Shown here: one piece after another, positions 16,205-64,000 of the stretch | Numbering within the stretch: the stretch's first letter is position 1 | Layout of the letters: each line of letters starts with the position of its first letter | Source: Candidatus Levyibacteriota bacterium | GTDB taxonomy: Bacteria; Patescibacteriota; Microgenomatia; Levybacterales; UBA12049 | NCBI GenBank assembly: GCA_016182185.1 | Contig: JACOXU010000003.1 | Coordinates: 123,881 to 187,880, forward strand | Length of the DNA stretch: 64,000 bases | Direction of reading: 5' to 3' | Translations under genes and position numbers: made by a program | Notes under the pieces: generated by a model | The model's database searches: none | Told to the model about the DNA's origin: nothing | Seen by the model: only the letters and a program-made list of their open reading frames with translations

Positions 16205-16348
16205 AAATTAAATTCTAAACTCAAAGCATCAAATCACAAATAATATCCAATTTCCAATACTCAAAATTCAAAATTGTTTTGGATATTAGAATTTTATATT
16301 TGTAATTTATTTGAAATTTGTAATTCTGGATTTAGAATTTAAGCAAGA

Positions 16349-17073: not shown

Positions 17074-17610
17074 ATGGCAAAAGTAAAATCAGGTCATGGA
17101 AGATTAATTGCGCTTTTTGTTTTATTTGTGATACTTGCGGCAATTCCCCTGACTGTTAAGATATCTCAGGAACAACAGGAAATCCGCCAGCGTGCGGCAT
17201 ATGTTATTCCAACACCAGCTCCCAGATCATCTCCTCCCTGTTTTGTTCCCCAAGCAGTTCTTGACAAGCTGAAAAGATCGATGAATATAATTTCTCAAAA
17301 TTATGGCTATGGTGATGTAGACCAAGATGGAAGTATAACAACAAAGGATGCCCTACTGATTTTAAGATATGTAGCCAAGGCGACTACTCTTTCTCCTCTT
17401 CAGATAGAAGTAGCAGATGTGGATGGAGCACCGAATCTTTTATCATATGCCTCAAACGTTACCGCAGTTGATTCCCTTTTGATACAAAGATATATCGCTA
17501 GACTTCCTCTTCCTGACGGAAGATACAGTTTTCCGGTCTGTCCCAAACCGACGCCAACTCCTGCCCCTCTTATTTCTCCTTGGTCAGTTACTCCGATTCC
17601 TACTAATTAA
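17074..17610 (+). CDS. membrane-anchored dockerin-like repeat protein
   Basis: 178 aa; TM then SQEQQEIRQRAA motif shared with next gene; Ca-binding dockerin-like segment GDVDQDGSITTKDALLILRYV ... VDSLLIQRYI. Confidence 0.5.
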   Translation: MAKVKSGHGRLIALFVLFVILAAIPLTVKISQEQQEIRQRAAYVIPTPAPRSSPPCFVPQAVLDKLKRSMNIISQNYGYGDVDQDGSITTKDALLILRYVAKATTLSPLQIEVADVDGAPNLLSYASNVTAVDSLLIQRYIARLPLPDGRYSFPVCPKPTPTPAPLISPWSVTPIPTN

Positions 17611-17661
17611 TGTCTTTTTTACTATTGACAAAGCATCTTTAACTATTCTATTCTTGTATTA

Positions 17662-20253
17662 ATGGGAAATCCTTTGCAGAAGGTAGTTGAACTTATTAAA
17701 ACATCAAGCCCCAAAAGGACAATAAGCATAATTGTCATCCTTATCATCGCCGCCGCCGTACCTCTCACTGTCATTGTTTCCCAACAACAGCAGGAAATCC
17801 GTCAGCGTGCAGCAGACTGTACAAACGGAATAATATCTGGAAGAGTCTTTTATGATAACAATCCCGAAAATGGCGTTTTTGACCCTACAGAACAAGGTTT
17901 CGATTTAATCGGACAACCAAATGTTGCCCAGGTGAACATGTGGAATAACGACACTGGAATAGCACTCAACAAAGATATAAGCGCCGGAAATGGTGTCTAT
18001 CAATTTACAGCCTCTACCAATAGAGATGGTTACCGCCTAAGATTTACTGCTCCCACGGGGTACAGGATCACAACGCCCCAAAATATTTCTCCATGGCAAG
18101 TAAGTCCGAGATCTGACGGGCGCTGGCAGGCAGATTACCCTGCCTTAAGACTCCCTCCATGTGCGCAAATATACGATTTTGGAATTACCAACGGTCAACC
18201 TCCTACGCCAACTGCTACACCTCCTCCAATCTCAAGCTGTGGTACAAATGGAAATGTTGTTTTTGACAATAAATCTTCGAGTCTCACAACTACAGCGGGC
18301 GCACCCACGACTCTTACGTGGAACCATACTGTGGGCTCTGGAAATAGTCGGCTATTGATTGTCGGGGTTAATCTTCGCACGTCTTCGGGAGGAAATATCA
18401 CTTCTGTTAGAGCCAACAATCAAAACTTGACTCGAATAGGAAATGTAATAAGTGTAGGCGGAACCTCAAGTCCGACAAGTAACTCCATGTGGTACTTACT
18501 TAATCCTCCCAGCGGTTTAGTGTCAATTTCGGTCACGGCAGACAGAAGTCTGACTATCTCAGCCGGTGCTTCAAGCTGGTCCAATGTAGACCCGAATAAT
18601 CCTTTGGGCAACTCAGTCGCAAATACAGGCAACAACTCCAATCCCAATCTATCAATAGCAGGACCTGCTTGCGGTGTTGTAGTTGATAATCTTGCCACAC
18701 CTATCGGCGACTGTCCTCAAACTCCATCTCCTGATTCGCTTCAGACCCTGCTTTGGAGCGTGAATGTGCCTGGAGATAATCTCTCTGATCAGGGAGGAAA
18801 GGGTCAAAGCGCAGGCAGTTATAAACAATCAGCTACTCAGACAACTATGTGGTGGAATAATGCTTGCAGCGGAGCTTGGGCTTTAAAAGCCGTTCCGGTA
18901 GCGGCATTTGAACCCACTCCCACACCAACAAATATTCCGACACCGACACCTACTCTAGTTGCTGGTGCCAAACCTCCCCCTTGTTTTGTCCCTGCTTCGC
19001 TTCTAAGTCAACTCGGGCTCCCAACTACTGCTGTAAGAGGCTATGGAGATGTTGATTTGGATGGTGATGTTGACATGACTGATGCTACCAAAATATTAAA
19101 TTTTGTTGCTCTAATTCCACCGCTTCCTTCACCTCTTCAAATTGAAGTGGCTGATGTTGATTCAACTTGGGGTGTTCTTTCCAATGCGTCAAGCATAACC
19201 TCAGTTGATTCACTCATGGTTCAAAGATATTTACAAAACTTACCCATACCATCACAATATAATCCACCGAACTCAAATACAATAAGTCTGCCGGTTTGTT
19301 TAGGCCAGCCTACAATCACGCCAACCCAACCGCCAACCCCTATTCCAACTACTATCAGGACGCCAACTCCAACCACTACGCCTCAGTGTACATCCGGTCA
19401 AACATGCACTGCATGTACTGCACCTGCTAATACTTGTAATGGTTCAGGCACTCAAAGCTGTACTCTGACAACAACCTCTACTGGATCTACAAACTGCCAG
19501 CAAGTTACGACTCATAATATTTCCTGTACCGGCGCGCCGGCCAACTGCACAAATGGTAATGTTTGTGTAAGTAACGCCTGTGTTGCTCCAACCGGAGTGC
19601 CCACGGCAACTGTTGTACCCACCCTGACGAAGCCTCCAGGAGTTACTGTTACAGAAGCGCCAAGAATAAGCCCGACCGCTGTTCCGACTATTCCAACCGG
19701 TAATACAGTCTTTGCCCTAAACATTGGACTTGATGGAATTGGAACTGTCGGAGATAATGTCAATCCGAATAATTCGAGTGGCTCCAATAAAAATCCATTG
19801 AGAACATCAAGAAGCGTAACTATTCAGGTGTTTGATAACAACAACACCGAGGTAGCAAATAAGTCCGGCACGCTTACCTATCAAACAGGAAGCGGCAGAT
19901 TTACCGGAAATGTGGATATGGATAGGCTTGCAAGCGCAAATTACAATGTCAAAGTAAAATCTCCAGGCTATCTAAGACGTCTTATTCCTGGAATTCAAAA
20001 TGTGACTGCCGGTCAGGCGTTTAATCTCCCGAATGAAAACTTGGTTACGGGCGATATCAACGGGGACAATGCAATTAATATTCTGGACTACAATATATTT
20101 ATAAGCTGTTCTATCTTCAGTAAAGACGGACAAGCAGTCTGCAACCAGAACCCTGACTACAAAACGCTCTCTGACCTTGATGACAACGGGGCAACTGATC
20201 AGTTTGATTACAATCTGTTTGTCAGAGAACTTTCAGTCCAAAACGGAGATTGA
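17662..20253 (+). CDS. large cell-surface protein with SdrD-B-like domain, Cys-rich module and two dockerin-like modules
   Basis: 863 aa; N-terminal TM+SQQQQEIRQRAAD; GRVFYDNNPENGVFD (Cna/SdrD B-like); Thr/Pro linkers; dockerin-like GDVDLDGDVDMTDATKILNFV...VDSLMVQRYL and C-terminal GDINGDNAINILDYNIF...DLDDNGATDQFDYNLF; about 180-aa domain shared with the giant protein at 58607..64000. Confidence 0.55.
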   Translation: MGNPLQKVVELIKTSSPKRTISIIVILIIAAAVPLTVIVSQQQQEIRQRAADCTNGIISGRVFYDNNPENGVFDPTEQGFDLIGQPNVAQVNMWNNDTGIALNKDISAGNGVYQFTASTNRDGYRLRFTAPTGYRITTPQNISPWQVSPRSDGRWQADYPALRLPPCAQIYDFGITNGQPPTPTATPPPISSCGTNGNVVFDNKSSSLTTTAGAPTTLTWNHTVGSGNSRLLIVGVNLRTSSGGNITSVRANNQNLTRIGNVISVGGTSSPTSNSMWYLLNPPSGLVSISVTADRSLTISAGASSWSNVDPNNPLGNSVANTGNNSNPNLSIAGPACGVVVDNLATPIGDCPQTPSPDSLQTLLWSVNVPGDNLSDQGGKGQSAGSYKQSATQTTMWWNNACSGAWALKAVPVAAFEPTPTPTNIPTPTPTLVAGAKPPPCFVPASLLSQLGLPTTAVRGYGDVDLDGDVDMTDATKILNFVALIPPLPSPLQIEVADVDSTWGVLSNASSITSVDSLMVQRYLQNLPIPSQYNPPNSNTISLPVCLGQPTITPTQPPTPIPTTIRTPTPTTTPQCTSGQTCTACTAPANTCNGSGTQSCTLTTTSTGSTNCQQVTTHNISCTGAPANCTNGNVCVSNACVAPTGVPTATVVPTLTKPPGVTVTEAPRISPTAVPTIPTGNTVFALNIGLDGIGTVGDNVNPNNSSGSNKNPLRTSRSVTIQVFDNNNTEVANKSGTLTYQTGSGRFTGNVDMDRLASANYNVKVKSPGYLRRLIPGIQNVTAGQAFNLPNENLVTGDINGDNAINILDYNIFISCSIFSKDGQAVCNQNPDYKTLSDLDDNGATDQFDYNLFVRELSVQNGD

Positions 20254-20330
20254 CAAGAAAAACAAAATATTTAATACTAAATTAAGTGTAGGTTTTGATT
20301 TTTGCCTTTTGAATTTTAAATTTAATTAGT

Positions 20331-20981
20331 ATGTCCAGACGAACAATTATATTAATCATAGCACTTGTCGGTATAACAGGAATCTTACTTGCTATTGCCC
20401 TGACTCAAAAAAAGGGTCCGGGACCTTCTGTGACTAAACCTTCGCCTCAGGTTCAGGTGCCTTACGCTCATACGTCGCTTGAGATAAGCAGTAATCCCGT
20501 TTCCCAGGCAACTTCTTCGGGATCATCCACCTATTCCCTGGATGTGAATATTAACACGGAAACAGATAAGGTGACTGCAGTCCAGCTTGAATTATCTTTC
20601 GACCCCAAGGCAATCTCAAATGTAGATGTTAAACCAGGCACTTTCTTTAAAAATCCTGCCCAACTTATCAAAAGAGTAAATGCTAAGGACGGAACAATCT
20701 CATATGCGCTAGGAATAAATCCCGGAGAAAATGGAATACAAGGAAGTGGAGTCGTTGCCGAAATCTCATATCGGGAAATTGGCCAATCCGGAACTTACAC
20801 CCAGATTAATTTTCTACCCAAAACATTGGTAAGCGCTGAGGGAACGGATAAATCTGTTCTTAAAAAATCAATCGGATCACTAATTATGCTCGGGGGAGCA
20901 AGTCCTGCAAATTCGACTAAGCCCGCCACTTCAGGTGCTATTCCTCAAACGACAAGAACTCAGCCTAATCCTTTTCAATAA
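20331..20981 (+). CDS. membrane-anchored cohesin-like domain protein
   Basis: 216 aa; TM anchor; LELSFDPKAISNVDVKPGTFF...DGTISYAL...GSGVVAEISYREIG pattern resembles cohesin type-I beta-sandwich. Confidence 0.45.
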   Translation: MSRRTIILIIALVGITGILLAIALTQKKGPGPSVTKPSPQVQVPYAHTSLEISSNPVSQATSSGSSTYSLDVNINTETDKVTAVQLELSFDPKAISNVDVKPGTFFKNPAQLIKRVNAKDGTISYALGINPGENGIQGSGVVAEISYREIGQSGTYTQINFLPKTLVSAEGTDKSVLKKSIGSLIMLGGASPANSTKPATSGAIPQTTRTQPNPFQ

Positions 20982-34555: not shown

Positions 34556-35657
34556 CTGAATAGGTACTATTACCCACATTTTTAACTATCCCCTTAATCT
34601 CCATCATTGATAAAATACTCCCGAGTTTTGAGGAATCAATCCTTGTCTTTCGGGCAATTTCATCAAAATACAATTCCTCATTCCTCAAAGCTTGTAAAAT
34701 CAATCTCTCTTCTTTACTCTCTGTTTTATATTTTGTAGTTTGGGTTTTTGGATTTATTTGAGATTTGTAATTTGGAATTTGTAATTTTAATTCATTTAGT
34801 ATATCTTCAGTAGACGTTACCAACTTCGCTCCCTTATTTATCAGCTTATAAGGTCCTTTCGACAAGACAGAATTAATCGGACCCGGCACTGCGAAAACCT
34901 TGCGATTAAATTTGAAGGCAAAATCAGCTGTAATAAGAGAGCCCGAATCCTCTGCTCCTTCTGTGACTAAAACTGCCTTGGATAATCCTGCTATAATTCT
35001 ATTTCGTGAAGGGAAAAGACCCTTGCCTGGTAAGTAACTTAGGGGAACCTCGGAAATTACGCAGCCTCTGCCATTAATAATTTTGTCATAAATATTTTTA
35101 TTATGTATCGGCGTGCAGCAATCCACTCCACATCCCAAAACTGCGATAGTCTTCCCGCCATTTTCAAGAGTAGATAAATGCGAAATCCCGTCAATGCCTA
35201 ACGCCAGACCAGATACTATTGTAAAACCTGATAAGCTTAAATCTTCAGCAAACTTCTGGGTGACTTCCTTTCCATAATTTGTTGGCTTTCTTGATCCGAC
35301 AATTCCAATTGTCTGTTTCAATTCATCTTTAAACTTCTCAAATCTTAATCCTCTGCCAAAAAGGACAAATGGCGGATTGGGAATCTCAAGAAGAAGTTCG
35401 GGATAACTTGTGTCATTACTTGTGATGAACCAGGCATTCTTCTTTTTTAATTTTTCCAAGTAATCTTTTATAGAAAATTCATTCCTGAATTTATCAAACT
35501 TAATTGTCAGCTTGTCCCCCAAAACTTTTTTTAAATCTGTTATTTCGGCTTTCCATGCTTTTTCTGCTGTTCCAAACTCGGCAAGCAGTTTTTTAAATTT
35601 CAAAGGTCCTACTCCAGAAAACACCGAAAACCCCAACCAATAATTTCTTTCCTCCAT
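34545..35657 (-). CDS. dprA: DNA processing protein DprA (Smf) with C-terminal winged helix
   Basis: 370 aa; Rossmann core GIVGSRKPTNYG...GLALGIDGISH; linker codes an intergenic-type repeat word. Confidence 0.8.
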   Translation of the reverse strand: MEERNYWLGFSVFSGVGPLKFKKLLAEFGTAEKAWKAEITDLKKVLGDKLTIKFDKFRNEFSIKDYLEKLKKKNAWFITSNDTSYPELLLEIPNPPFVLFGRGLRFEKFKDELKQTIGIVGSRKPTNYGKEVTQKFAEDLSLSGFTIVSGLALGIDGISHLSTLENGGKTIAVLGCGVDCCTPIHNKNIYDKIINGRGCVISEVPLSYLPGKGLFPSRNRIIAGLSKAVLVTEGAEDSGSLITADFAFKFNRKVFAVPGPINSVLSKGPYKLINKGAKLVTSTEDILNELKLQIPNYKSQINPKTQTTKYKTESKEERLILQALRNEELYFDEIARKTRIDSSKLGSILSMMEIKGIVKNVGNSTYSVKE

Positions 35658-45694: not shown

Positions 45695-46519
45695 ATGAAG
45701 ATCATCTTCTTTGGAAGCTCAAAATATTCGGTCATTGTTGCTAAAAAACTCCATCAGGAATTCAATTTAAAACTTGTTGTTACTACTCAAGCCGATTCCT
45801 TTCCTGTTAAATTTGCAGCAGAAAATAATATCGACCATAAGGTTGTCTCGAAGTTTGATAGAGAAACTATCGAACAGATAGAAAAATACAAACCCGATTT
45901 TAATGTTGTGGCTGATTTTGGCAAAATTCTTCCCGAAGAATTGCTCAAACTACCTAAATTTGATTCTTTAAATGTCCATCACTCACTTCTTCCCAAATAT
46001 CGAGGGCCATCCCCTGCTCCCACTGCGATTTTAAATGGAGAGAAAGTAACCGGCGTGTCAATTATTTCTATGCAAAGGGGCGTGGATCAAGGACCAGTCT
46101 TTCTCCAAAATGAATATGAAATAAAAGATATCGATACAACTGATTCGCTTCTTACCAAATTGAATGTTTTGGGCGCTGATTTAGTATCTAAAGTCATTAA
46201 AAATTTTGAGAATGAAAAGCCTATTCCGCAAGATGAATCCGAAGTGACGATTACATATCTTTTAAAAAGAGCTGATGGTTTTATTGATATAGATAATCCT
46301 CCACCGCCTGATAAATTAAATCGAATGATCAGAGCTTATTTTCCTTGGCCCAATGTTTTCTTTGAGGCTAAATTAAATGGAAAGGGGAAAATTATTAAGC
46401 TCTTGCCGGATAAACAAATTCAAGCCGAGGGAAAAAAGCCAATGAGCTATAAAGACTTTATCAATGGCTATAAAGAGGGAAAATATTTACTCCGCAAAAT
46501 TAACCTAATTTCTAATTGA
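45695..46519 (+). CDS. fmt: methionyl-tRNA formyltransferase (short C-terminus)
   Basis: 274 aa; SLLPKYRGPSP motif, follows def. Confidence 0.8.
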   Translation: MKIIFFGSSKYSVIVAKKLHQEFNLKLVVTTQADSFPVKFAAENNIDHKVVSKFDRETIEQIEKYKPDFNVVADFGKILPEELLKLPKFDSLNVHHSLLPKYRGPSPAPTAILNGEKVTGVSIISMQRGVDQGPVFLQNEYEIKDIDTTDSLLTKLNVLGADLVSKVIKNFENEKPIPQDESEVTITYLLKRADGFIDIDNPPPPDKLNRMIRAYFPWPNVFFEAKLNGKGKIIKLLPDKQIQAEGKKPMSYKDFINGYKEGKYLLRKINLISN

Positions 46520-46610
46520 TCTAATGTCTAAAACTTTGTTTTGAATTTAAGATTTTGAATTTGGAATTTGTTTAGAAATTGGAAATTAGGATTTAGAAAT
46601 TTGGTGCTAT
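46500..46610. repeat. intergenic degenerate tandem repeat array (GGAATTTGG / AGAAATT units, about 11-bp period)
   Basis: TTGAATTTAAGATTTTGAATTTGGAATTTGTTTAGAAATTGGAAATTAGGATTTAGAAATTTGG. Confidence 0.5.
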
Positions 46611-48146: not shown

Positions 48147-48218
48147 GCAGGGACGCTCGGACTCGAACCGAGAAAAGCAGTTTTGGAGACTGCTGTGATA
48201 ACCATTTCACCACGTCCC
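48147..48218 (-). tRNA. tRNA-Trp (anticodon CCA)
   Basis: acceptor GGGACGT.., anticodon stem GCAGT/ACTGC loop CTCCAAA, T-arm GGTTCGAGTCC. Confidence 0.75.
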
Positions 48219-48304
48219 TAATTTAAAGTTAAAATTCAAAAGACAAAAGTCAAAATTGCCTTTTTAATATACAGTTTTCGTAACAAACTTGCAATTTTGG
48301 TTTC

Positions 48305-48481
48305 TTACTTTAATTTTTCTGTTTCCTTGTGATCGGTTTTCTTTCGACAATGTCTGCAATATTTTTTAAGCAATAATTTCTCGGTCGTATTTAACTTATT
48401 TCTAGTTGTTACATAATTTCTGTTTTTGCAGACCGTACAGACAAGTCCGACTTTTACCCTGTGTTCACCTTTTTTCGCCAT
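48305..48481 (-). CDS. rpmG: 50S ribosomal protein L33 (not in ORF track, 58 aa)
   Basis: translation MAKKGEHRVKVGLVCTVCKNRNYVTTRNKLNTTEKLLLKKYCRHCRKKTDHKETEKLK; AGGAGG SD upstream. Confidence 0.75.
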   Translation of the reverse strand: MAKKGEHRVKVGLVCTVCKNRNYVTTRNKLNTTEKLLLKKYCRHCRKKTDHKETEKLK

Positions 48482-48508
48482 AAATTCCTCCTTTCATGTT
48501 AATTTGAG

Positions 48509-48578
48509 CCGACGATGGGAATCGAACCCATGACCTAGTCATTACCAATGACTTGCTCTGCCACTGAGCCACGTCGGC
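48509..48578 (-). tRNA. tRNA-Thr (anticodon GGT)
   Basis: acceptor GCCGACG/CGTCGGC, anticodon stem AGTCA/TGACT loop TTGGTAA, T-arm GGGTTCGATTCCC. Confidence 0.7.
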
Positions 48579-48600
48579 CTACAAAGCCCGTTTGACGCAG

Positions 48601-48684
48601 TGCTAGGTGAGGGACTCGAACCCCCGTAGCCCTTCCGGGCGCCTCGTCTACAGCGAGGAGCAATTGCCGCTATGCGAACCTAGC
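48601..48684 (-). tRNA. tRNA-Tyr (anticodon GTA, long variable arm)
   Basis: acceptor GCTAGGT/ACCTAGC, anticodon stem CCTCG/CGAGG loop CTGTAGA, variable arm CGCCCGGAAGGGCTAC. Confidence 0.7.
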
Positions 48685-49041
48685 ATTTAAATTCATTCCA
48701 ACTTTTAGAACCAACAACTATATGAGCTTTTGTGATTACTTTTTCTGCAGGAATCAAATATTTTTCTCCATTACTGCAATAAATAAATAAGAAATCGAAA
48801 TCCTCGCTTTTATATCTATTATGATATGTCTTTTTTCTATATCCACCAAATGTTCTTAAATCAATATTGTAACCACCGCTTGATTCCTTGTCATCTGTAT
48901 ATTTACATTGAATCTTCTTAAAATTACCATCGTCTATCACCAAATCATACAAATCGCAATCCGCTATTGGAAGAAGAACAGTATTCCCTTTGGCTATAAA
49001 ATGATCGATGGCTACTCCCAATGCCAAACTTCCTTTTCGTT
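48680..49041 (-). CDS. hypothetical small protein with possible PD-(D/E)xK / Hjc-like nuclease core (start trimmed; track ORF reads through tRNA-Thr)
   Basis: about 120 aa; LLPIADCDLYDLVIDDGNFKKIQCK resembles restriction-endonuclease-like core; inserted between tRNA-Thr(TGT) and tRNA-Tyr. Confidence 0.3.
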
Positions 49042-49093
49042 TAGTATTCACGTATTTATTATACGTGGTTACTATACACGTGTCAATGTGCTG

Positions 49094-49165
49094 AGCCGAA
49101 GGTGGGATTCGAACCCACGACTTGCTGTTTACAAAACAGCTACTCTGCCACTGAGTTACTTCGGC
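49094..49165 (-). tRNA. tRNA-Thr (anticodon TGT)
   Basis: acceptor GCCGAAG/CTTCGGC, D-arm ACTCAGTGGCAGAGT, anticodon stem GCTGT/ACAGC loop TTTGTAA, T-arm GGGTTCGAATCCC. Confidence 0.7.
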
Positions 49166-54617: not shown

Positions 54618-55940
54618 TTATTTCAATTTGTCACTAACAAAGACGTCTCCTGCAAGCGGAATTCTTGGACCTCTTCTTATCTTCCACTTGGGTAATTCCC
54701 CGTGTTTTGAAAGCACTTCGTCATAATATGCGACATGTTGTCCAGCGATTATTTTCCAGGCAAATCTTTCCCGAACATCCTGTCCTGATTTCACTCTTAT
54801 TTCTCTGGCGGCCTCCTCCGGAAGACTTAAAACCCTATTTATCTGAGTTGCAAGACTATCGGAATCAAAAGGCCTTGCCATAAATCCATATAAATCATCA
54901 CCTATTGCCTCATTCTGTCCTCTAATGTCAGTACAAACCACCAATGTTCCACAGCTTCTGGCCTCAGCTATCGTTCTGTTGAATCCCTCTCCTCCAATTG
55001 ATGGAGCAACTACAACATCCGCACTTCTGTAAGCCCGCGCAAGATCTTCTTTGGATAAGACTCCAAGAAATTCTACGTCAGGAATGTCCTCTTTTTTAAC
55101 TATTTCTTTTAACCTTTCCGTCATGTCCCCTTTCCCGGCTAGTTTTAATTTAAGAGCATCAAATCCTACCCGTCTCAAAGAGGCATAAGCCTGCAAGAGA
55201 TATTCAAGTCCTTTCCGCCCGTCATGTCTTCCGGCAAAAAAGATCGTTTTCTTTCCATCTTCCCATTTTTCAAGTTTTGGGCCATCCGGATTAAAAAATC
55301 CTACATTAATTCCGTTATAAATCACTCTGTACTCTCCCGGAAACATTTCATTCCAAAACTGCGCAGTCCCATTTGAGACTGCAATTCTTCCGCTCAAAGT
55401 CTTTTCTATTGTATTTACATATCCCATAGTCAATCCTGTAGGAATACCATAACTAAACTTTGGCCTGCGAAGTATCTTTGCTGCAATTGTATATGCCCTG
55501 GCCAGCGCATCGATTCCATGCGGAGGATAACCGGCATGAAATTGTCCGACAACAGGAACTATCCTTTTTTCATTTTCATCTTTGGGAATAGCAGAAAATA
55601 GTGTGTGCGAAGAATTGGGAACACCCGGCTCATGGGAAATAATAATATGAGGCTTTACAGCCTCAAGAATCTGCCTTGCTCTTCCTTTATTAAATGTCAC
55701 AGCGGCATCAATTTTGGTTTCGATGACAGGAATACTTACGGGATTGCCTAAATGATAATCCGCCCTGTCACTTTGTCTATTTTTATTGGTAGGACCAAGT
55801 GTCCTCACATCACAGCCCTGTGCCTCAAGAAACGGGATTATTTCCTGTATAAAACTACTAACCCCGCTGGGATAATCAGTTCTGATCGGATATGGTGAAT
55901 GAATTAAGACTTTAAGACTTGATCGTCTTTCCTGATTCAT
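54618..55940 (-). CDS. GT4-family glycosyltransferase
   Basis: 440 aa; C-terminal EGFNRTIAEARSCGTLVV (E-x7-E region). Confidence 0.7.
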   Translation of the reverse strand: MNQERRSSLKVLIHSPYPIRTDYPSGVSSFIQEIIPFLEAQGCDVRTLGPTNKNRQSDRADYHLGNPVSIPVIETKIDAAVTFNKGRARQILEAVKPHIIISHEPGVPNSSHTLFSAIPKDENEKRIVPVVGQFHAGYPPHGIDALARAYTIAAKILRRPKFSYGIPTGLTMGYVNTIEKTLSGRIAVSNGTAQFWNEMFPGEYRVIYNGINVGFFNPDGPKLEKWEDGKKTIFFAGRHDGRKGLEYLLQAYASLRRVGFDALKLKLAGKGDMTERLKEIVKKEDIPDVEFLGVLSKEDLARAYRSADVVVAPSIGGEGFNRTIAEARSCGTLVVCTDIRGQNEAIGDDLYGFMARPFDSDSLATQINRVLSLPEEAAREIRVKSGQDVRERFAWKIIAGQHVAYYDEVLSKHGELPKWKIRRGPRIPLAGDVFVSDKLK

Positions 55941-56174: not shown

Positions 56175-56714
56175 ATGAGTAATAAAATAAGTACCAACAG
56201 ACAGAAAAAAGAACAGATAATTGCCGGCCTTAGCGAGAAGATCGAAAAGGCTCAAAGCATAGTCTTTACCAACTATCAGGGGCTTACTCACAAACAGCTT
56301 GAAGATCTTAAAAAAGCTTTAAGGGCTTTGAATGCAGAAATCATCGTAGTGAAAAATACCCTACTTGCCCGCGCGCTTCAAATTTCATCCGCCAATTCGG
56401 CGGATCAAATTTCAAATTTTGAGGGCCCTACCGGTGCCCTCTTTATCTATGAAGATATCATTCTTCCTCTAAAACAGCTAGCCAAAAGTATCAAATTATT
56501 AGGTTTGCCCACGATAAAATTTGGCATATTGGATAATCAAGCGCTAACCGGCGAACAGGTGCTAAAATTAGCCTCACTTCCCTCCCGTGAAGTCCTCCTA
56601 GCGCAAGTGGTCGGCGGACTCAAGTCGCCTATTTATGGACTACATCGCGCACTTAATTGGAACCTTAATAAACTTGCATTAACAATCTCTGCTATAAGGC
56701 AGAACAAATCCTAA
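56175..56714 (+). CDS. rplJ: 50S ribosomal protein L10
   Basis: 179 aa; typical L10 N-terminus. Confidence 0.85.
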   Translation: MSNKISTNRQKKEQIIAGLSEKIEKAQSIVFTNYQGLTHKQLEDLKKALRALNAEIIVVKNTLLARALQISSANSADQISNFEGPTGALFIYEDIILPLKQLAKSIKLLGLPTIKFGILDNQALTGEQVLKLASLPSREVLLAQVVGGLKSPIYGLHRALNWNLNKLALTISAIRQNKS

Positions 56715-56719
56715 GCACA

Positions 56720-56805
56720 AAATTCAAAACAGTTTGGAATTTGGGATTTTGAGAATTGGAATTTGTTTAGAATTTAGATATTTGGATTTAGAAATTACCG
56801 ACCGA
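56720..56805. repeat. intergenic degenerate tandem repeat array between rplJ and rplL
   Basis: GTTTGGAATTTGGGATTTTGAGAATTGGAATTTGTTTAGAATTTAGATATTTGGATTTAGAAATT. Confidence 0.5.
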
Positions 56806-57781: not shown

Positions 57782-58135
57782 TTAATTATTAATACTTAAT
57801 ATCCTTCCAAATATTCTGATTAGAGCTTCGCTTTCATCCTCAATAAACCCGATTGTCTGATGAGGCTTTCTACCCTCTGAGCTCTTCAGGATTTTTACCC
57901 AGTATTTAGTTTCTCTCATTTCTCTTTTGGCCTGTGTCATTTTAAACACGAAGTCTTTCCCTTCTGCAACTTTGGCTTTTTCATAAACCTCCTCTGCCAT
58001 TTTGATCTTGCGCGTAATCTGATTGGAAAGTACAAAATTCACACTGCTGTAAGGAAGTTTCTCCCTAAGCTCCATTGCGAAAGACAGGAGGTTCAATATC
58101 CTTCTCTCTATATAATGCGTTAGTTCAATACTCAT
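57782..58135 (-). CDS. four-helix-bundle protein (PF05635 / bAvd-like)
   Basis: 117 aa; RETKYWVKILKSS ... EALIRIFGRIL matches conserved ETxYWL core of family. Confidence 0.5.
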   Translation of the reverse strand: MSIELTHYIERRILNLLSFAMELREKLPYSSVNFVLSNQITRKIKMAEEVYEKAKVAEGKDFVFKMTQAKREMRETKYWVKILKSSEGRKPHQTIGFIEDESEALIRIFGRILSINN

Positions 58136-58197: not shown

Positions 58198-58557
58198 TTA
58201 TTTAACTTTTTTATATATTGAATTGAAAATTAAGTTTAGTTCTTTTGCTTCCTGCCATAATATTCTTGCTTCTTCTTTTAACTGTGGGGCAGCAACTACA
58301 ATCATTCGCAGAAAATGTTTTACTTCTCTTGCTTCTTTTTTGCAGATTCCTATTTTATGCTTAAAATCTTGTTTACTTTCTGCATCATCCGCTTCTGAGT
58401 AATTTGCGCCAATACTTGTCTCTGCTTTAACAAGCTGACTAATCAAAGGGTTGGTTATTGGGTTTTTAGAAATTGACTTACAAAAGATAATGACATTCTT
58501 TCCAAACTTTGCCGTCCTCTCTTCCAGATCGTACTTGTTATTTATTTTTTTATTCAT
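58198..58557 (-). CDS. four-helix-bundle protein (PF05635 / bAvd-like)
   Basis: 119 aa; QLVKAETSIGANYSEADDAESKQDFKHKIGICKKEAREVKHFLRMI matches 23S-rRNA-IVS/Avd family core. Confidence 0.6.
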   Translation of the reverse strand: MNKKINNKYDLEERTAKFGKNVIIFCKSISKNPITNPLISQLVKAETSIGANYSEADDAESKQDFKHKIGICKKEAREVKHFLRMIVVAAPQLKEEARILWQEAKELNLIFNSIYKKVK

Positions 58558-58606: not shown

Positions 58607-61600
58607 CTACCGTTCGTCGACTATCCACCAATCAAACTTGATATCTCGACTGTAGCGTCTTTCAATCTCAACTGTGAAGCCTGAGCCGGCTGCTTTATTC
58701 GTAACCACGAGCGGCTGGCCTCCGGTAAGGCTTGTGGCAGTCACAAATATTCTGGATTTATTGGTCACGGCAGCCGTATCAACTACCACACTCGTATCTC
58801 CTGCGAGCAGGGTCCCCGAACCCAGCGAAGCCGCGTTTGACGCGGTGGTATCGATATTGACTTTCTTGGCTGTGATTTCACCTTCTGTTTTTATATTTCC
58901 ATTGGTATCAATCGTGACTTTGCCTGAGAGTATATTTATCCCACCCAAGCCATTGCTCTGAAGGTTCAAATCTCCAATACTATTTATAGATGCTCCCCCA
59001 TCTCCATTGTTAAGCGATGAGTCAAGTCCGTGAATTGACAAGAGCCCTGCTGCGATGTTACCGGTCACTCCCAGATCTGCAGTCGTCGTTCTGCCCAGCA
59101 CCATCAAGTTGCCTGATATTGTCGCGCTCTCTGCGTTGATATTGGTCAGATCAGGTAGAAGCGAAGCCGCGTTTGACGCGGTTGAGACACCCAATACTGC
59201 TCCATTCAGCATGCTCTGCAGGAAGGCAGATTCTGATGCCAGCTGATCCACTCTTTGTGAGAGACTATTGGTATTAAGCTCTAAGCCGGTTACTCTATTT
59301 TGCATATCCGCGAACAACGGATCACTACTCAAATCAAATGTCCCCGAAGATGAAGCTGACGATACGGGATCGTTACTTGGGTTGATCAGTCCCAGCAACT
59401 GGCTCGCCTCCTCCGCACTAAACTGCGCATATGGATTAGTCACGCTCCCATCTGCTGCAATTTGAATCCTCGGATCTCTCCAGGAAAGGTTTATAAATAC
59501 TGAAATTTTACCAATAATATCCGGATCTGAGTTGCTGTAGCCTTCAATAGCAATCCCTATAACCATTCCCGGCTTTGTTGCCTTCATGGCTACACCGGGC
59601 TTACTTGATGCAGTAAGAGAATCACCCGGCATTATTTCTCCATTTTCCGCAGATACTTTTACAGGAACACGACCAGAAAGAGCAACAGCGACTTCTTTTA
59701 CTGATCGGGGGTCTGTTTTCTGACCATGCCCACCAAGCAACACACCTGGTTTTTCTGAGATGACACCAAGCATTGCAGAATTTGTGGATGACTTTTGAAC
59801 AAATTCTGTTTCGTAGTCATGTTCAAAAGGATTATCAGGTGGGGTATCAGGTTTGGGCTGATAATTTAAACTTACAACGTCCCCAGCTTCTATTGAATCA
59901 TCAAGCGTCGGGAAATTTTCAGCTATATCATCAATCGTAAAGCTTGAACTAATACCATATACAGTACCTGCAGTTCTTGAAGCATCAATACAGTCGTCTG
60001 CAGTATCTAGAGAATCATCTGCGCAGATAGCTCCATAGGCTAGTATACCATTGCCGCCTATATTAGTAGTCACATTAGCTCCGGCTGCTCCGACAAGCAA
60101 ATCCCCCCCGCTTCCTCCTGTGACAGTAAATATAGTAGCCCCCGAGGCTGAGGCGGTAAAAATATCTAGACCAGATGTTTGGTTTATAACTGCTGCTGCC
60201 TTACCGCCTGATGCTCCGGAAAGATTAAGCATCGAACCAAGACCCGAGCTTGTGACGTTAAGTACGGCCCCTGTTGAAAGCCCATTACTCTGGGTAAGAG
60301 AAAGAACATTTGCAGTATCGGTACAGCCGCCAGTGGTAATACTGCAATTGGATGTCAGATTTGCCAATGAGCCAGATAGACTAACAGATCCAACTGGTAT
60401 CATAGAGACTCCATTGTCTACCCAATTGCCTGACCCCGTATTAGACCACGAATGAGTTGGATTCTCTTGCGTGCTGTCTGAATAAGCTACGGATGGATTA
60501 AGAAATCCGCCCTGTCTTTTTGTATTAACCCCCGTAGTCGTGAGTGTTCCGCTAACCGCTGAGGCTACTATATCTATTGCCGTTCTGCCCAAAGAGTTTG
60601 TGATGGCATTATTAGGCGTAGTACTAGAACCAGTTGAAGAGGTACAACCTGCAAAAGCGCTTCCTACAGTTTGATTAATGTTAAAGTAGCTGGCAGTAAT
60701 AACATAACCACGATCACTTCCACTTCCATTGGTGAAGTTTACACTTGTTGTATTAGCGCCTGAAGATGAAGAATCCCCCATTGCTATAGCAAAAATATCC
60801 GTAGCTACACTAGTGCCATTTGTAGCCTGACTACAGACTCTCGTAGCGGAACTTCCGCCGTACGTTACAGTATTAATTGTTTCAGAATTTGCATTCTGAT
60901 ATGCAATGGCTATTACCACCATACGGTTGCTTCCTGCTCCCAAAGTATGGCTGTTAGTTATTGTAGTATTAGTAAGAGTCCAACTACTTATAACAGAGGA
61001 GTCATAAACACTTGTATTTATGCTTAAATTTCGATTTAGATTTAGCAAATTACCGGAGTCAGTATTGATAGCTGTATATGTAGCGGTATGATCTCCATTG
61101 ATAAGATTGGCAGAAGTCAAATTGGCAGAAGTGGAAAGGACATTTAGGCCCTTACCCGTAGTTAGGGAATTTGCGGCGATTGAGAACGCGTCTCCTGTAG
61201 TTGCAGAAGAGGTTGCAAAGACAGACCCCCAATTATTTATAGTAAAGACTGTGCTTCCCGATTTTGATGCTGTGAAAATATCTGCATTTGGTGAAAGGTC
61301 TGTTTGATTTACTCTAAGAGCTGCGTTATTCCCGCTGATGCCGGATATGTCTAATAATCCTATTGGACTTGTATTTCCGATACCTACTCTGCCAATATTA
61401 TTTATAACAAATTTTGTAGAGCCTGAAGAAGAGGCGGATAGAATATAATCATTTGTATTAGTTCCAGTTTGGTTGAGAATCATCAAAGCGTTGTGTCCGT
61501 TGTTGCCTGATAGATCAAGGAGTCCAAGTGGGCTTGTGTTGCCGACCCCGACCCTACCAAGATTGTTGATGACAAATTTGGTAACACCAGAGGATGAGGC

Positions 61601-64000
61601 AGCCAAAACATAATCGTTGGCATTGGTACCAGTCTGGTTAAGGATCATTAAGGCGTTTTGTCCGTTATTACCAGATAGATCAAAAAGACCTAAGGGAGTC
61701 GAATTCCCAATCCCAACTTTACCGAGTTTATTTATAACGAACTTAGTTGTCCCGCTCTTTGAAGCTGTAAAGATGTCATTATTCCCTGTCTGATTGATAA
61801 TTGCAGCTGCCTTACCACCGGAGGCTCCTGAAATATTTAGCATTGGCCCAAGACCTGAGGTGGCGATGTTGAGTACCGCACCTGTCGAAAGACCATAACT
61901 CTGGTTAAGAGAAAGAAGATTTGAACTATCATTGCAAATTCCAGCTGTTACAGTACAATTAGAGGTTATTGACGCAAGGCTTCCCGTAAGATCTGCTGTG
62001 CCTACTCCGGGAACGAGTGCCACTCCTAGATGATACCAAGATAAATCAGTACCACCGGCAGTCCAGGCCATGTTGGTGCTTGCACCTGTAGCTGATTCTT
62101 CCGAATAAGCGGCTACATAGACTGTCGAGCCGTATGTTTGGTTCCATCTCTGCGTTTGATTACTTCCTCCAGGAAGTGAGAGTGTCGGGTTTATGCCTGC
62201 ATTCAGCATAGAATCTATTACAACATCCCCGCTCTGGCTTGTAACATTTAAGCTTGGGCTGGTACCCGAACCTGTTTCGGTCTGACAAGTAGCACGAAAT
62301 GGGCTTGTTTGAGAGACTCCGCTATAAGTTGTTGCTAAAGCGACCCAGGTCTCACTATTACCTAATGTTATTGATACAGTATTTGAACCCGAACTTGGAT
62401 TAAGCAAATAATACATATCTATGGCTTCTGTTCCTGGTGAAAAAGTACAGCCTGGAATCAAAGTGAGCGCTGAACCGTTATAAGTAATAGATGATATTCC
62501 AGCATTTCCTGCTCTTGATACGGTAACTATTAATATACGGTTGTCACCCGTTCCGGTAGTGTGTGAAAAATTAGCTGAACTACCTGTTTGCTCAGCCAGA
62601 GTGGTACTATTATCATAAGCAATAGTTTGAGTTGAGGTATTCAGAGTATAATTTCTACTAAGGCTTGCTAAATTTCCAGAAATATTAGCATTACTCGTAC
62701 CGGTATACGTATTGGTCTGGTTTACATTTAATCCTTTACCACTCGTCAGCGAATTTGCTACGATTGAGAAGGCGTCTGTCGAAACTGCAGAAGAAGTGGC
62801 ATAGATACCTCTATTTATAGTATCAAAATTGAGCATCGAACTTCCGGCAGCATCTGCAATCTGAAGAGCTGTTGATGAATTGGTCAAAGGCAGCCATTGC
62901 GCACCTGCGACGGAGACCAGATTTCCTCCGTTTGTAATTCTGAACTTGGTCGTTCCGCTTGTTGAGGCGGCTAGAATGTCATTCGTGCTTGCGCCGGTTT
63001 GGTTGATGATAAGAGCGGCGTTTCCTCCCTGATTTCCTCCTTGCAAATCCAGAAGCGCAGTTGGGGTGGTTGTGCCGATGCCCGCCCAGACATAATTCGC
63101 TCCAGTCCCTCCAAGAACCAGCCTATTGCTTGCTCCCACAATCGCGTTGTATCCAAGGGCTGTAGAACCGTTGATGCTGTTTGATGATGTTTGAGATAGA
63201 TATCCTATGAATGTGTTGTTGCTTCCCGAGGTGAGTGGAACACCTTGAGTGCCTGCTGAAACTCCGATGGCTGTATTGCCCGAGCCTGTAACATTTTGAA
63301 GAGCAGCGTTTCCCAACGCAGTGTTATTGGTTCCTGTATTTCCAGAGCTAAGACCTACGAAGGTGTTCGTTCCTCCGGGTGCTCTGAATAGATTATTATT
63401 GGATTGTTTTATGATAATCTCTCCGGTCGTATCTCCTCCGATAGTCAAAGTCCTTTGGGCGGTTGACTGTATACTTCCGCCTGCTCCGAGCGAGAAATTA
63501 CCGGCGATAGAAGCAGTAGGAGTACCCGAATTGATATTCAAGACTGCGAACTTTGCAGATTGGGTCGTGGTTCCACCCAGAAGAAGATCAACTGTATTGG
63601 CAAAGGCAGGAGTATAAGCTCCACTCACCAGATCCCATCTTGCGCCTGCACAGTCACTTGAAGCAGTAACTATACCATTTGAGGTAGTTACACAGGAGCC
63701 TGATACATCTGCTCCGGCTGTGCCATTGATCCTGAGCTTACTTGATCCAGCCAAGCTGATATTTATATCTCCTGTGTCTCCTCCGCCCAAGGTCAGAGTT
63801 TGTCTATTCGTAGACGTAAGACTTCCTGCTGTATCTATAGTAAATCCTGCAGCAGATGAAGCATTACCGCTGTTGGTGACTCTGAATTTAGTTGCACCGG
63901 ATGAAGAGGCGGCAAGAATATCACCGTTTGAAGTAGAATTATTGACTATAAGAGTCGCGTTGTTGCCTGCGTCTCCGGTTATTTCAAGAAATGCTTTAGG
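58607..64000 (-). CDS. giant Gly/Ser/Thr/Asn-rich repetitive surface protein (partial; N-terminus beyond window)
   Basis: ORF track 58607..63790 (1727 aa) starts at an in-frame TTG; reading frame stays open to position 64000; tandem about 57-aa repeats (NQTGTN..DY.L.ASSSG.TKFVINN.GRVG.GNTSP.GLLD), two copies of about 180-aa domain shared with 17662..20253. Confidence 0.6.
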   Translation of the reverse strand, partial: PKAFLEITGDAGNNATLIVNNSTSNGDILAASSSGATKFRVTNSGNASSAAGFTIDTAGSLTSTNRQTLTLGGGDTGDINISLAGSSKLRINGTAGADVSGSCVTTSNGIVTASSDCAGARWDLVSGAYTPAFANTVDLLLGGTTTQSAKFAVLNINSGTPTASIAGNFSLGAGGSIQSTAQRTLTIGGDTTGEIIIKQSNNNLFRAPGGTNTFVGLSSGNTGTNNTALGNAALQNVTGSGNTAIGVSAGTQGVPLTSGSNNTFIGYLSQTSSNSINGSTALGYNAIVGASNRLVLGGTGANYVWAGIGTTTPTALLDLQGGNQGGNAALIINQTGASTNDILAASTSGTTKFRITNGGNLVSVAGAQWLPLTNSSTALQIADAAGSSMLNFDTINRGIYATSSAVSTDAFSIVANSLTSGKGLNVNQTNTYTGTSNANISGNLASLSRNYTLNTSTQTIAYDNSTTLAEQTGSSANFSHTTGTGDNRILIVTVSRAGNAGISSITYNGSALTLIPGCTFSPGTEAIDMYYLLNPSSGSNTVSITLGNSETWVALATTYSGVSQTSPFRATCQTETGSGTSPSLNVTSQSGDVVIDSMLNAGINPTLSLPGGSNQTQRWNQTYGSTVYVAAYSEESATGASTNMAWTAGGTDLSWYHLGVALVPGVGTADLTGSLASITSNCTVTAGICNDSSNLLSLNQSYGLSTGAVLNIATSGLGPMLNISGASGGKAAAIINQTGNNDIFTASKSGTTKFVINKLGKVGIGNSTPLGLFDLSGNNGQNALMILNQTGTNANDYVLAASSSGVTKFVINNLGRVGVGNTSPLGLLDLSGNNGHNALMILNQTGTNTNDYILSASSSGSTKFVINNIGRVGIGNTSPIGLLDISGISGNNAALRVNQTDLSPNADIFTASKSGSTVFTINNWGSVFATSSATTGDAFSIAANSLTTGKGLNVLSTSANLTSANLINGDHTATYTAINTDSGNLLNLNRNLSINTSVYDSSVISSWTLTNTTITNSHTLGAGSNRMVVIAIAYQNANSETINTVTYGGSSATRVCSQATNGTSVATDIFAIAMGDSSSSGANTTSVNFTNGSGSDRGYVITASYFNINQTVGSAFAGCTSSTGSSTTPNNAITNSLGRTAIDIVASAVSGTLTTTGVNTKRQGGFLNPSVAYSDSTQENPTHSWSNTGSGNWVDNGVSMIPVGSVSLSGSLANLTSNCSITTGGCTDTANVLSLTQSNGLSTGAVLNVTSSGLGSMLNLSGASGGKAAAVINQTSGLDIFTASASGATIFTVTGGSGGDLLVGAAGANVTTNIGGNGILAYGAICADDSLDTADDCIDASRTAGTVYGISSSFTIDDIAENFPTLDDSIEAGDVVSLNYQPKPDTPPDNPFEHDYETEFVQKSSTNSAMLGVISEKPGVLLGGHGQKTDPRSVKEVAVALSGRVPVKVSAENGEIMPGDSLTASSKPGVAMKATKPGMVIGIAIEGYSNSDPDIIGKISVFINLSWRDPRIQIAADGSVTNPYAQFSAEEASQLLGLINPSNDPVSSASSSGTFDLSSDPLFADMQNRVTGLELNTNSLSQRVDQLASESAFLQSMLNGAVLGVSTASNAASLLPDLTNINAESATISGNLMVLGRTTTADLGVTGNIAAGLLSIHGLDSSLNNGDGGASINSIGDLNLQSNGLGGINILSGKVTIDTNGNIKTEGEITAKKVNIDTTASNAASLGSGTLLAGDTSVVVDTAAVTNKSRIFVTATSLTGGQPLVVTNKAAGSGFTVEIERRYSRDIKFDWWIVDER
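61390..61900 (-). repeat. intragenic tandem repeats, about 171-nt unit x3, inside giant gene
   Basis: units share about 80 percent identity (…CAAATTTGGTAACACCAGAGGATGAGGCAGCCAAAACATAATC… vs …CAAATTTTGTAGAGCCTGAAGAAGAGGCGGATAGAATATAATC…). Confidence 0.6.

Follow-up and report, generated by a model that had tools for sequence, protein, structure and literature searches.

Candidatus Levybacteria are ultrasmall and probably host-dependent bacteria. The gene described here lies at one end of a 64,000-nucleotide (nt) stretch of a Candidatus Levyibacteriota contig (JACOXU010000003.1, positions 123,881 to 187,880; hereafter the window) and encodes a giant protein that resembles phage tail fibers in several of its parts. 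Those Patescibacteria that have been cultivated live in attachment to other microbes, and the recognition and binding of their hosts are described as poorly known beyond type IV pili (PMC12206443). In phages, trimer folding of the phi29 and K1F proteins requires their C-terminal domains, which are removed by cleavage once folding is complete (PMC3357383, PMC4690869). Tail fiber-like proteins with chaperone domains are also widely annotated in cellular genomes. In eukaryotes, the membrane-bound transcription factor MyRF has in one polypeptide a DNA-binding domain, a membrane helix, and a phage-derived tailspike chaperone that trimerizes and cleaves itself (PMC8326128).

The giant protein is best read, at a probability of about 0.55, as an N-terminally anchored, probably trimeric, tail fiber-like adhesin of the Candidatus Levybacteria cell surface. 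Most likely, the fiber is built of phage tail-fiber parts and serves for attachment to another cell. To judge from the orthologs, the missing N terminus would have a cytoplasmic MerR-type helix-turn-helix (HTH) domain and a single membrane helix of N-in, C-out topology that anchors the protein, and recurring units of 55 amino acids (aa) would form the shaft. Two β-sandwich modules of the minor tail protein type may act as binding knobs, probably for a glycan or protein on the surface of the partner or host. The C-terminal region would be an intramolecular chaperone of the phi29 gp12 type that nucleates trimerization and subsequently cuts itself before D1358, a function suggested by its sequence-level likeness to the phage protein. 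The module could additionally be displayed in a second way, by a dockerin protein that is encoded beside a cohesin protein.

The giant gene is located on the minus strand (58607..>64000), as are all of its features listed below, and forms a single open frame of 1797 codons. This frame closes with a stop codon (58607-58609) and runs on past the window edge, so that the window holds the 3' two-thirds of the gene (58607..64000) and the 5' end lies beyond. The plus strand of the same stretch carries stops throughout. A TTG start at 63790 reported by the open reading frame tool is merely the first start codon visible to it. The encoded sequence is 100% identical to a public 2507-aa partial “hypothetical protein” from a 190-kb contig of Candidatus Levybacteria (P0001), which is itself N-terminally incomplete due to a contig end. 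As the first residues of P0001 align near position 744 of the ortholog P0003 (64% identity), about 730 N-terminal residues probably lie beyond P0001, and the full protein would comprise about 3200 aa. Five residues, S (13.3%), G (12.1%), T (12.0%), A (9.8%), and N (9.6%), make up 57% of the sequence. The original prediction, made from the DNA letters, had described a giant surface protein of more than 1790 aa rich in Gly, Ser, Thr, and Asn, and both the frame and the composition bear this out. The surface location is upheld by the N-terminal membrane helix of the orthologs, by phage tail-fiber parts throughout the protein, and by its 12 cysteines, which form six close pairs and fit an extracellular location. 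Sequence searches with the whole protein against Pfam, NCBIfam, and the PDB returned no match, and no catalytic domain was detected in it.

The last ~500 aa are the hallmark of the protein family, with the first half matched by 51 homologs and the second half by 22. The last 443 aa are 52 to 63% identical to the C termini of Levybacteria orthologs (alignment A3), and the last 278 aa match P0003 with a phmmer E-value (E) of 7e-126. A profile built from 19 C termini was searched against the PDB and matches the phi29 preneck appendage autochaperone (3gqh_A, E 5.2e-5), which defines a phi29-type (Peptidase_G2) chaperone-like region at 59471..59965 (aa 1346-1510). The alignment begins at chain residue 1 of 3gqh, and the motif D1358-I-A-E1361-N-F (59912-59929) thereby aligns its Asp and Glu to D1 and E4 of the phage chain. 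Conservation of either residue across the 19 aligned C termini is at least 90%. By analogy with phi29, the scissile bond is predicted to lie just before D1358. The same profile matches the “chaperon domain D4” of the tailspike Dpo31 (E 7e-4), including the GRVPVKV...GD block. The autoproteolytic cleavage domain PF11962 (Peptidase_G2) was detected in six of these 19 C termini, with a best E of 4.5e-10. The chaperone-like region is followed by a probable coiled-coil segment (59207..59338, aa 1555-1598), which is suggested by weak profile matches to GCN4 fusions, the YadA stalk, and sigma-1, and by the most conserved, β-rich C-terminal region (58610..59125, aa 1626-1797). The latter harbors a K1-lyase_C-like domain (58667-58831, aa 1724-1778; PF24146, 29 bits at a cut-off of 27) that is present in 13 of the 19 C termini including that of the giant protein.

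Compared to gp12 of Bacillus phage phi29 (PF11962; PDB 3gqh, 3suc), the conserved Asp and Glu are part of DFAEYFE in the phage protein and of D1358-IAENF in the giant protein, and the downstream block IGVIS..PG..LG is common to both; the block GRVPVKV...GD is shared with the Dpo31 chaperone. In contrast to gp12, the giant protein scores below the PF11962 cut-off and carries ~290 extra residues (the coiled coil and the K1-lyase_C-like domain). It is also ~4x longer, cellular, and, judging from its orthologs, membrane-anchored, and no β-helix enzyme domain was detected in it. The Peptidase_S74 tail fibers (endosialidase K1F, T5 pb1) and the bacterial “tail fiber domain-containing proteins” show the same layout of a long fiber, shaft units of the GxVGIG type, and a C-terminal folding chaperone. 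Their PF13884 domain (Peptidase_S74) is present in more distant homologs only; it was not found in the giant protein or its close orthologs, and the chaperone is of the G2 type instead. A trimeric autotransporter adhesin of the YadA type was considered and rejected: Hep_Hag/YadA gave no match in Pfam or the PDB, and the C terminus resembles K1-lyase_C, not a membrane-anchor barrel.

The modules of the giant protein belong to a larger super-repeat of ~360 aa that was revealed by tiled self-BLASTP and pairs aa 399-756 with aa 927-1293. Both copies take on the same order of a linker (DAFSI.ANSLT.G), the module, a two-cysteine segment (LAS.TSNC....G.C.D), and a 55-aa unit. Copy A is encoded at 61733..62806 and copy B at 60122-61222; the best tile match (aa 655-750 vs aa 1193-1287) reaches an E of 3e-36. 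Module copy 1 (61979..62629, aa 458-674) and module copy 2 (60371..61012, aa 997-1210) are 26% identical, and both are all-β and of the phage minor tail protein type. The conserved two-cysteine segment behind module 1, LASITSNCTVTAGICNDSS, is encoded at 61922..61978 and its counterpart behind module 2 at 60311-60367. It also follows the module in the homologs P0030, P0049, P0054, and P0074, and a motif search for cassette boundaries found just this LASxxSNC segment traveling with the module. A third copy of the module resides in the dockerin-bearing protein (18250..18924, plus strand; BLASTP E 1e-10 at 33% identity, hidden Markov model (HMM) E 9e-55), as had been predicted, and the module HMM detected no fourth copy in the window. 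The two copies in the giant protein had likewise been noticed, although the length of ~180 aa given for them falls short of the actual ~215 aa and the super-repeat had gone unseen.

The original prediction could name neither the shared module nor the repeat. This stands insofar as the module has no Pfam or NCBIfam match in the giant protein, in the dockerin protein, or in the module region of nine representative family members, and no match among PDB sequences; a precomputed Pfam domain is absent in 40 of the 45 database homologs. A name is nevertheless provided by the PHROGs database, since a search with the module HMM, as originally proposed, matches the “minor tail protein” families phrog_2106 (E 6.8e-16) and phrog_553 (E 7.3e-13), and the repeat region shows a weak local resemblance to the shafts of phage tail fibers with a self-cleaving chaperone. 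A tblastn search detects the module in Mycobacterium phages, within genes for minor tail proteins. It is also found in open reading frames of Nitrosopumilaceae spindle-shaped (archaeal) viruses (BK067786.1, BK067783.1, BK067791.1), at 28% identity over 79 to 94% of the module, and is thus common to bacterial and archaeal viruses.

Modeling of both the module and the repeat had been suggested as well. The AlphaFold model of the module, calculated from an alignment of 49 sequences, is a confident all-β fold of 15 strands with a predicted local distance difference test score (pLDDT) of 93.8 and a predicted template modeling score (pTM) of 0.91, while that of the repeat region is poor. In a Foldseek search of the PDB all template modeling scores (TM) of the module are below 0.3, and no fold family could be assigned; the top matches at this level are jelly-roll/β-sandwich folds, jelly-roll capsid proteins, and carbohydrate-binding modules. 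Among predicted viral proteins, the model superposes on dozens with a TM of 0.67 to 0.80 and a probability of 1.0. More than 20 of its structural matches are actinophage minor tail proteins, including those of the Mycobacterium and Gordonia phages Tweety, Shauna1, Tourach, and Gaia. The actinobacteriophage minor tail proteins (PHROG 2106/553) share with the giant protein an all-β module of ~215 aa (HMM E 7e-16, TM 0.7-0.8, 20-27% identity). In the phage proteins, which are small, this module is distal, whereas it occurs twice inside a giant cellular fiber here and once in the dockerin protein.

An exhaustive profile search retrieved 43,106 representatives of 50%-identity clusters at E ≤ 1e-3 and 7,222 at E ≤ 1e-30. 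The module is commonly present in two to six tandem copies, and the proteins that contain it reach a length of 6,384 aa. In the nine representatives examined it is accompanied by DUF11, Ig, and fn3 domains, company that is typical of an extracellular setting. By sequence, it is a very common phage and cell-surface domain for which neither Pfam nor NCBIfam holds a model, contrary to the possibility, raised at the outset, that it would turn out to be a well-known Pfam family. A very large domain family (~43,000 clusters) that extends from the minor tail proteins of actinophages and the spindle-shaped viruses of archaea to surface proteins of cells is thereby exposed. Within the giant-protein family itself the module is rare (8 of 120 homologs), and other members carry Kelch, β-helix, collagen, H-lectin, or GDSL domains instead. 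Binding or enzymatic cassettes that are exchanged while the scaffold stays constant show this pattern.

The dockerin-bearing protein (17662-20253, plus strand) resembles the components of cohesin–dockerin, cellulosome-like display. It harbors a Dockerin_1 domain (E 1.3e-9, at ~20050-20232), and the domain scan identified a cohesin gene next door (20331-20981). In contrast to such systems, the cargo is a minor tail-type module together with an SdrD_B domain and not a glycoside hydrolase, and the organism is a Levybacterium. Two dockerin proteins and one cohesin protein are clustered at 17074-20981. The genes of the two dockerin proteins have a stretch of 63 nt in common (17137-17199 and 17752-17814, 73% identity) that encodes an N-terminal membrane/signal segment.

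The giant gene is part of the core genome and not of a prophage, because it is syntenic among housekeeping genes in the orthologous loci. Directly downstream of it, with no terminator-like site in between, the domain scan places two minus-strand genes (58198-58557 and 57782-58135) for PF05635 “23S rRNA intervening sequence” four-helix-bundle (Avd-like) proteins (23S-IVP), and the genes for L10, a GT4 glycosyltransferase, and L1 lie beyond them in the window. In the loci of P0003 and P0004, the giant gene is preceded by the ATP synthase operon and then a DeoR-like gene, and is followed by PF05635 gene(s) and L10/L12. The P0004 locus, on an 820-kb contig, continues with GT4, L1, L11, NusG, and SecE, and the P0003 locus reaches the contig end soon after L12. 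The neighborhood of 23S-IVP, L10, GT4, and L1 is therefore common to the window and the orthologous loci, and the position between housekeeping operons is kept in at least three Levybacteria genomes. On the minus strand of the window, the GT4 gene (54618-55940) is inserted between those for L1 and L10 (53774-56714), as it is in the orthologous locus L001.

Near the orthologous giant genes lie PF05635 genes, some of them with an additional match to the bAvd model, as well as small MerR/HTH_17 genes that stand alone. A role of the giant gene as target of a diversity-generating retroelement was considered and rejected, as the window contains no pair of variable and template repeats and no reverse transcriptase was called in the orthologous loci. 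The C terminus has relatives in genome bins of Levybacteria, Microgenomates, and Patescibacteria. Bins labeled “uncultured Gammaproteobacteria” (L008, L010, L011) also carry C-terminal relatives (63%, 41%; 29% in L011) and are probably mislabeled or contaminated.

At their N terminus, the full-length orthologs have a MerR-type HTH domain or a pair of them (PF13411; P0011 with an E of 1e-22). The combination of a MerR HTH and a membrane helix is present in P0003, P0004, P0005, P0010, P0011, and P0013. The hydrophobic helix lies at about aa 105-180 and is preceded by three K/R residues and followed by one or two, which argues for an N-in topology of the orthologs. More distant members carry phage-integrase SAM-like domains in place of the MerR HTH. 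According to the precomputed domains of the 120 listed homologs, 23 have a MerR-type and 16 an integrase SAM-like domain; many of the remaining ones either are truncated or have the membrane helix at their very start.

The repeats of the putative shaft were defined by tiled self-BLASTP and an iterated unit HMM, which yield a unit of 55 aa or 165 nt instead of the 57 aa and 171 nt originally reported. The tandem repeats themselves are real. Three full units are arranged head to tail at 61220..61714: U1 (61550-61714, aa 763-817), U2 (61385-61549, aa 818-872), and U3 (61220-61384, aa 873-927). A degenerate fourth unit, U0 (61718..61861, aa 714-761; independent E 6e-22), directly precedes the array in the protein. 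Three dispersed copies lie at 62921..63082 (aa 307-360, independent E 6e-25), at 63863..64000 (aa 1-46, with its start outside the window), and at 60119..60253 (aa 1250-1294, independent E 3.5e-16), the last of which forms the end of the second super-repeat; two further dispersed units belong to the protein part outside the window. The unit consensus is GIGxxxPxxxLDxSGxxGGNAAxIxNQTxxSxNDILxASxSGxTKFxIxNxG, and the best match of one unit to another in BLASTP has an E of 3e-27. The unit profile found no match in the PDB. At least one copy is present in 87 of the 120 listed homologs, mostly as one to six dispersed copies. Among the 40 proteins with listed unit positions, tandem pairs are confined to the giant protein, which has four, and one other protein, which has one.

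A Foldseek search with the model of aa 700-935 against the viral library BFVD gave local matches with an E of 1e-8 to 1e-6 and a TM of 0.2 to 0.36; the named ones are phage tail fibers or self-processing intramolecular chaperone proteins, apart from one generic virion structural protein. These matches lend weak support to a tail fiber-like shaft. Short repeats of the NTALGYxAL / NTAIG type are located at 63107-63334 (aa 223-298) and at about aa 40-210 of P0001. By eye they resemble YadA heads (Hep_Hag), a likeness that was discarded as no Pfam or PDB match was obtained.

Tandem repeats in a large Ser/Thr/Gly-rich surface protein are also a property of phase- or size-variable adhesins, in which slippage or recombination between identical intragenic DNA repeats frequently changes the length of the protein. 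The original prediction was of this kind and considered the DNA repeats near-identical. The array is indeed peculiar to the giant protein among the 120 homologs, so the copy number did change at some time in evolution. Variable adhesins need near-identical DNA repeats, however, and the copies found here are only 53 to 72% identical: U1 and U2 share 82% of their amino acids, 72% of their nucleotides, and 36% of their third codon positions, U2 and U3 58%, 58%, and 38%, and U1 and U3 51%, 53%, and 22%, respectively. The longest exact run common to any two of U1-U3 is 10 nt (11 nt when U0 is included), Tandem Repeats Finder reported nothing, and the 180-nt DNA matches between the super-repeats are just 76% identical. 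Synonymous sites between units are saturated while the protein sequence is kept, which dates the unit duplication as old. Copies this diverged leave no substrate for slippage or homologous recombination, and for the same reason collapse of the repeats during assembly, which would have made them an artifact, is of no concern. Frequent length variation is accordingly extremely improbable. Since the unit is family-wide and its tandem arrangement is not, the array appears from its sequence to be an old elongation of the presumed shaft that is specific to the lineage and maintained by selection at the protein level, and not a contingency locus. For the scanning of genomes, the lesson is that tandem repeats in a protein need not mean unstable DNA.

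That every recognizable part has phage relatives could also indicate a tail-fiber gene of a prophage, tailocin, or virion within the bacterial contig. Such an origin is very unlikely, given that the locus is maintained between housekeeping operons, that no phage genes were called in the flanks of the two orthologous loci, and that the scanned neighbors in the window are ribosomal, glycosyltransferase, and 23S-IVP genes. The orthologs moreover start with an HTH and a membrane helix and not with a virion-attachment domain, and a size of ~3000 aa also speaks against it. A surface-tethered, tailspike-like depolymerase that degrades the capsule or wall of the partner would account for the K1-lyase_C match of the C-terminal domain and for the chaperone matches, which are to tailspike depolymerases (phi29 gp12, Dpo31), and some family members do contain β-helix or GDSL-lipase domains. 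It is a distinctly improbable explanation for the giant protein, in which no catalytic domain was found, in which K1-lyase_C is a terminal, noncatalytic domain, and in which the modules are β-sandwiches typical of binding domains. A structural fiber or surface-layer component of the envelope that acts in spacing, aggregation, or protection without specific recognition would be in line with a conserved, syntenic single-copy gene, a highly conserved C terminus, and a low-complexity sequence in which S, G, T, and N abound. Between orthologs, in contrast, the middle part of the protein is highly variable, and the swapping of modules (this one in 8 of 120, and Kelch, β-helix, collagen, or lectin domains in others) is the pattern of receptor binding under diversifying pressure, which renders a purely structural role unlikely.

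Several points weigh against an anchored, trimeric adhesin as well. The proposed mechanism is built on sequence and predicted structures throughout, and in the Foldseek comparison with the PDB no solved structure resembles the module. The HTH and the membrane helix lie outside both the window and P0001 and are deduced from synteny and from orthologs of 52 to 64% identity. The giant protein's own sequence has no PF11962 match at E ≤ 0.1, and it is the family profile and some homologs that match. Cleavage and release are uncertain, as the chaperone-like stretch is followed by ~290 residues, far more than in phi29 gp12, and the conserved C-terminal end could be a permanent tip instead. The monomer model of the repeat region (aa 700-935) has a pLDDT of 66 and shows short strands only. 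This would be expected of a fold that exists only in the oligomer, and equally of a thin, noisy alignment.

If the tail fiber-like adhesin is the correct reading, the giant gene represents a conserved core-genome candidate for the attachment fiber of the uncultured Levybacteria, equipped with phage receptor-binding parts and swappable modules. Its orthologs expose a fusion of DNA-binding domains to a surface fiber that appears undescribed; literature searches returned no account of the Levybacteria giant-protein family, nor of cytoplasmic DNA-binding domains fused to it. By analogy, the nearest conceptual precedent is MyRF, which likewise joins a DNA-binding domain and a membrane helix to a self-cleaving trimerization chaperone. 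The two differ in domain order and in chaperone type, and the HTH of the giant family is deduced from orthologs only. Unlike in MyRF, the chaperone alone cannot free the HTH, because it is situated at the far extracellular end. That the family consists of membrane-spanning proteins which join a cytoplasmic DNA-binding domain to a chaperone-assembled extracellular fiber and couple host contact to DNA binding is doubtful. If true, it would mean that genes are regulated after a regulated release of the HTH or that DNA is tethered or handled at the contact site, and the family would be a differently arranged bacterial counterpart of MyRF.

Two further types of repeats were noted elsewhere in the window. 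AT-rich intergenic repeats of ~89 nt, which resemble GGAATTTGTAATTT / GGATTTAGAAATT, occur at 16253-16341, 34700-34788, 46514-46602, and 56709-56797 and are 62 to 72% identical. A cluster of four tRNA genes on the minus strand (48147-49165; Trp-cca, Thr-ggt, Tyr-gta, Thr-tgt) is the source of a 92-nt direct repeat.

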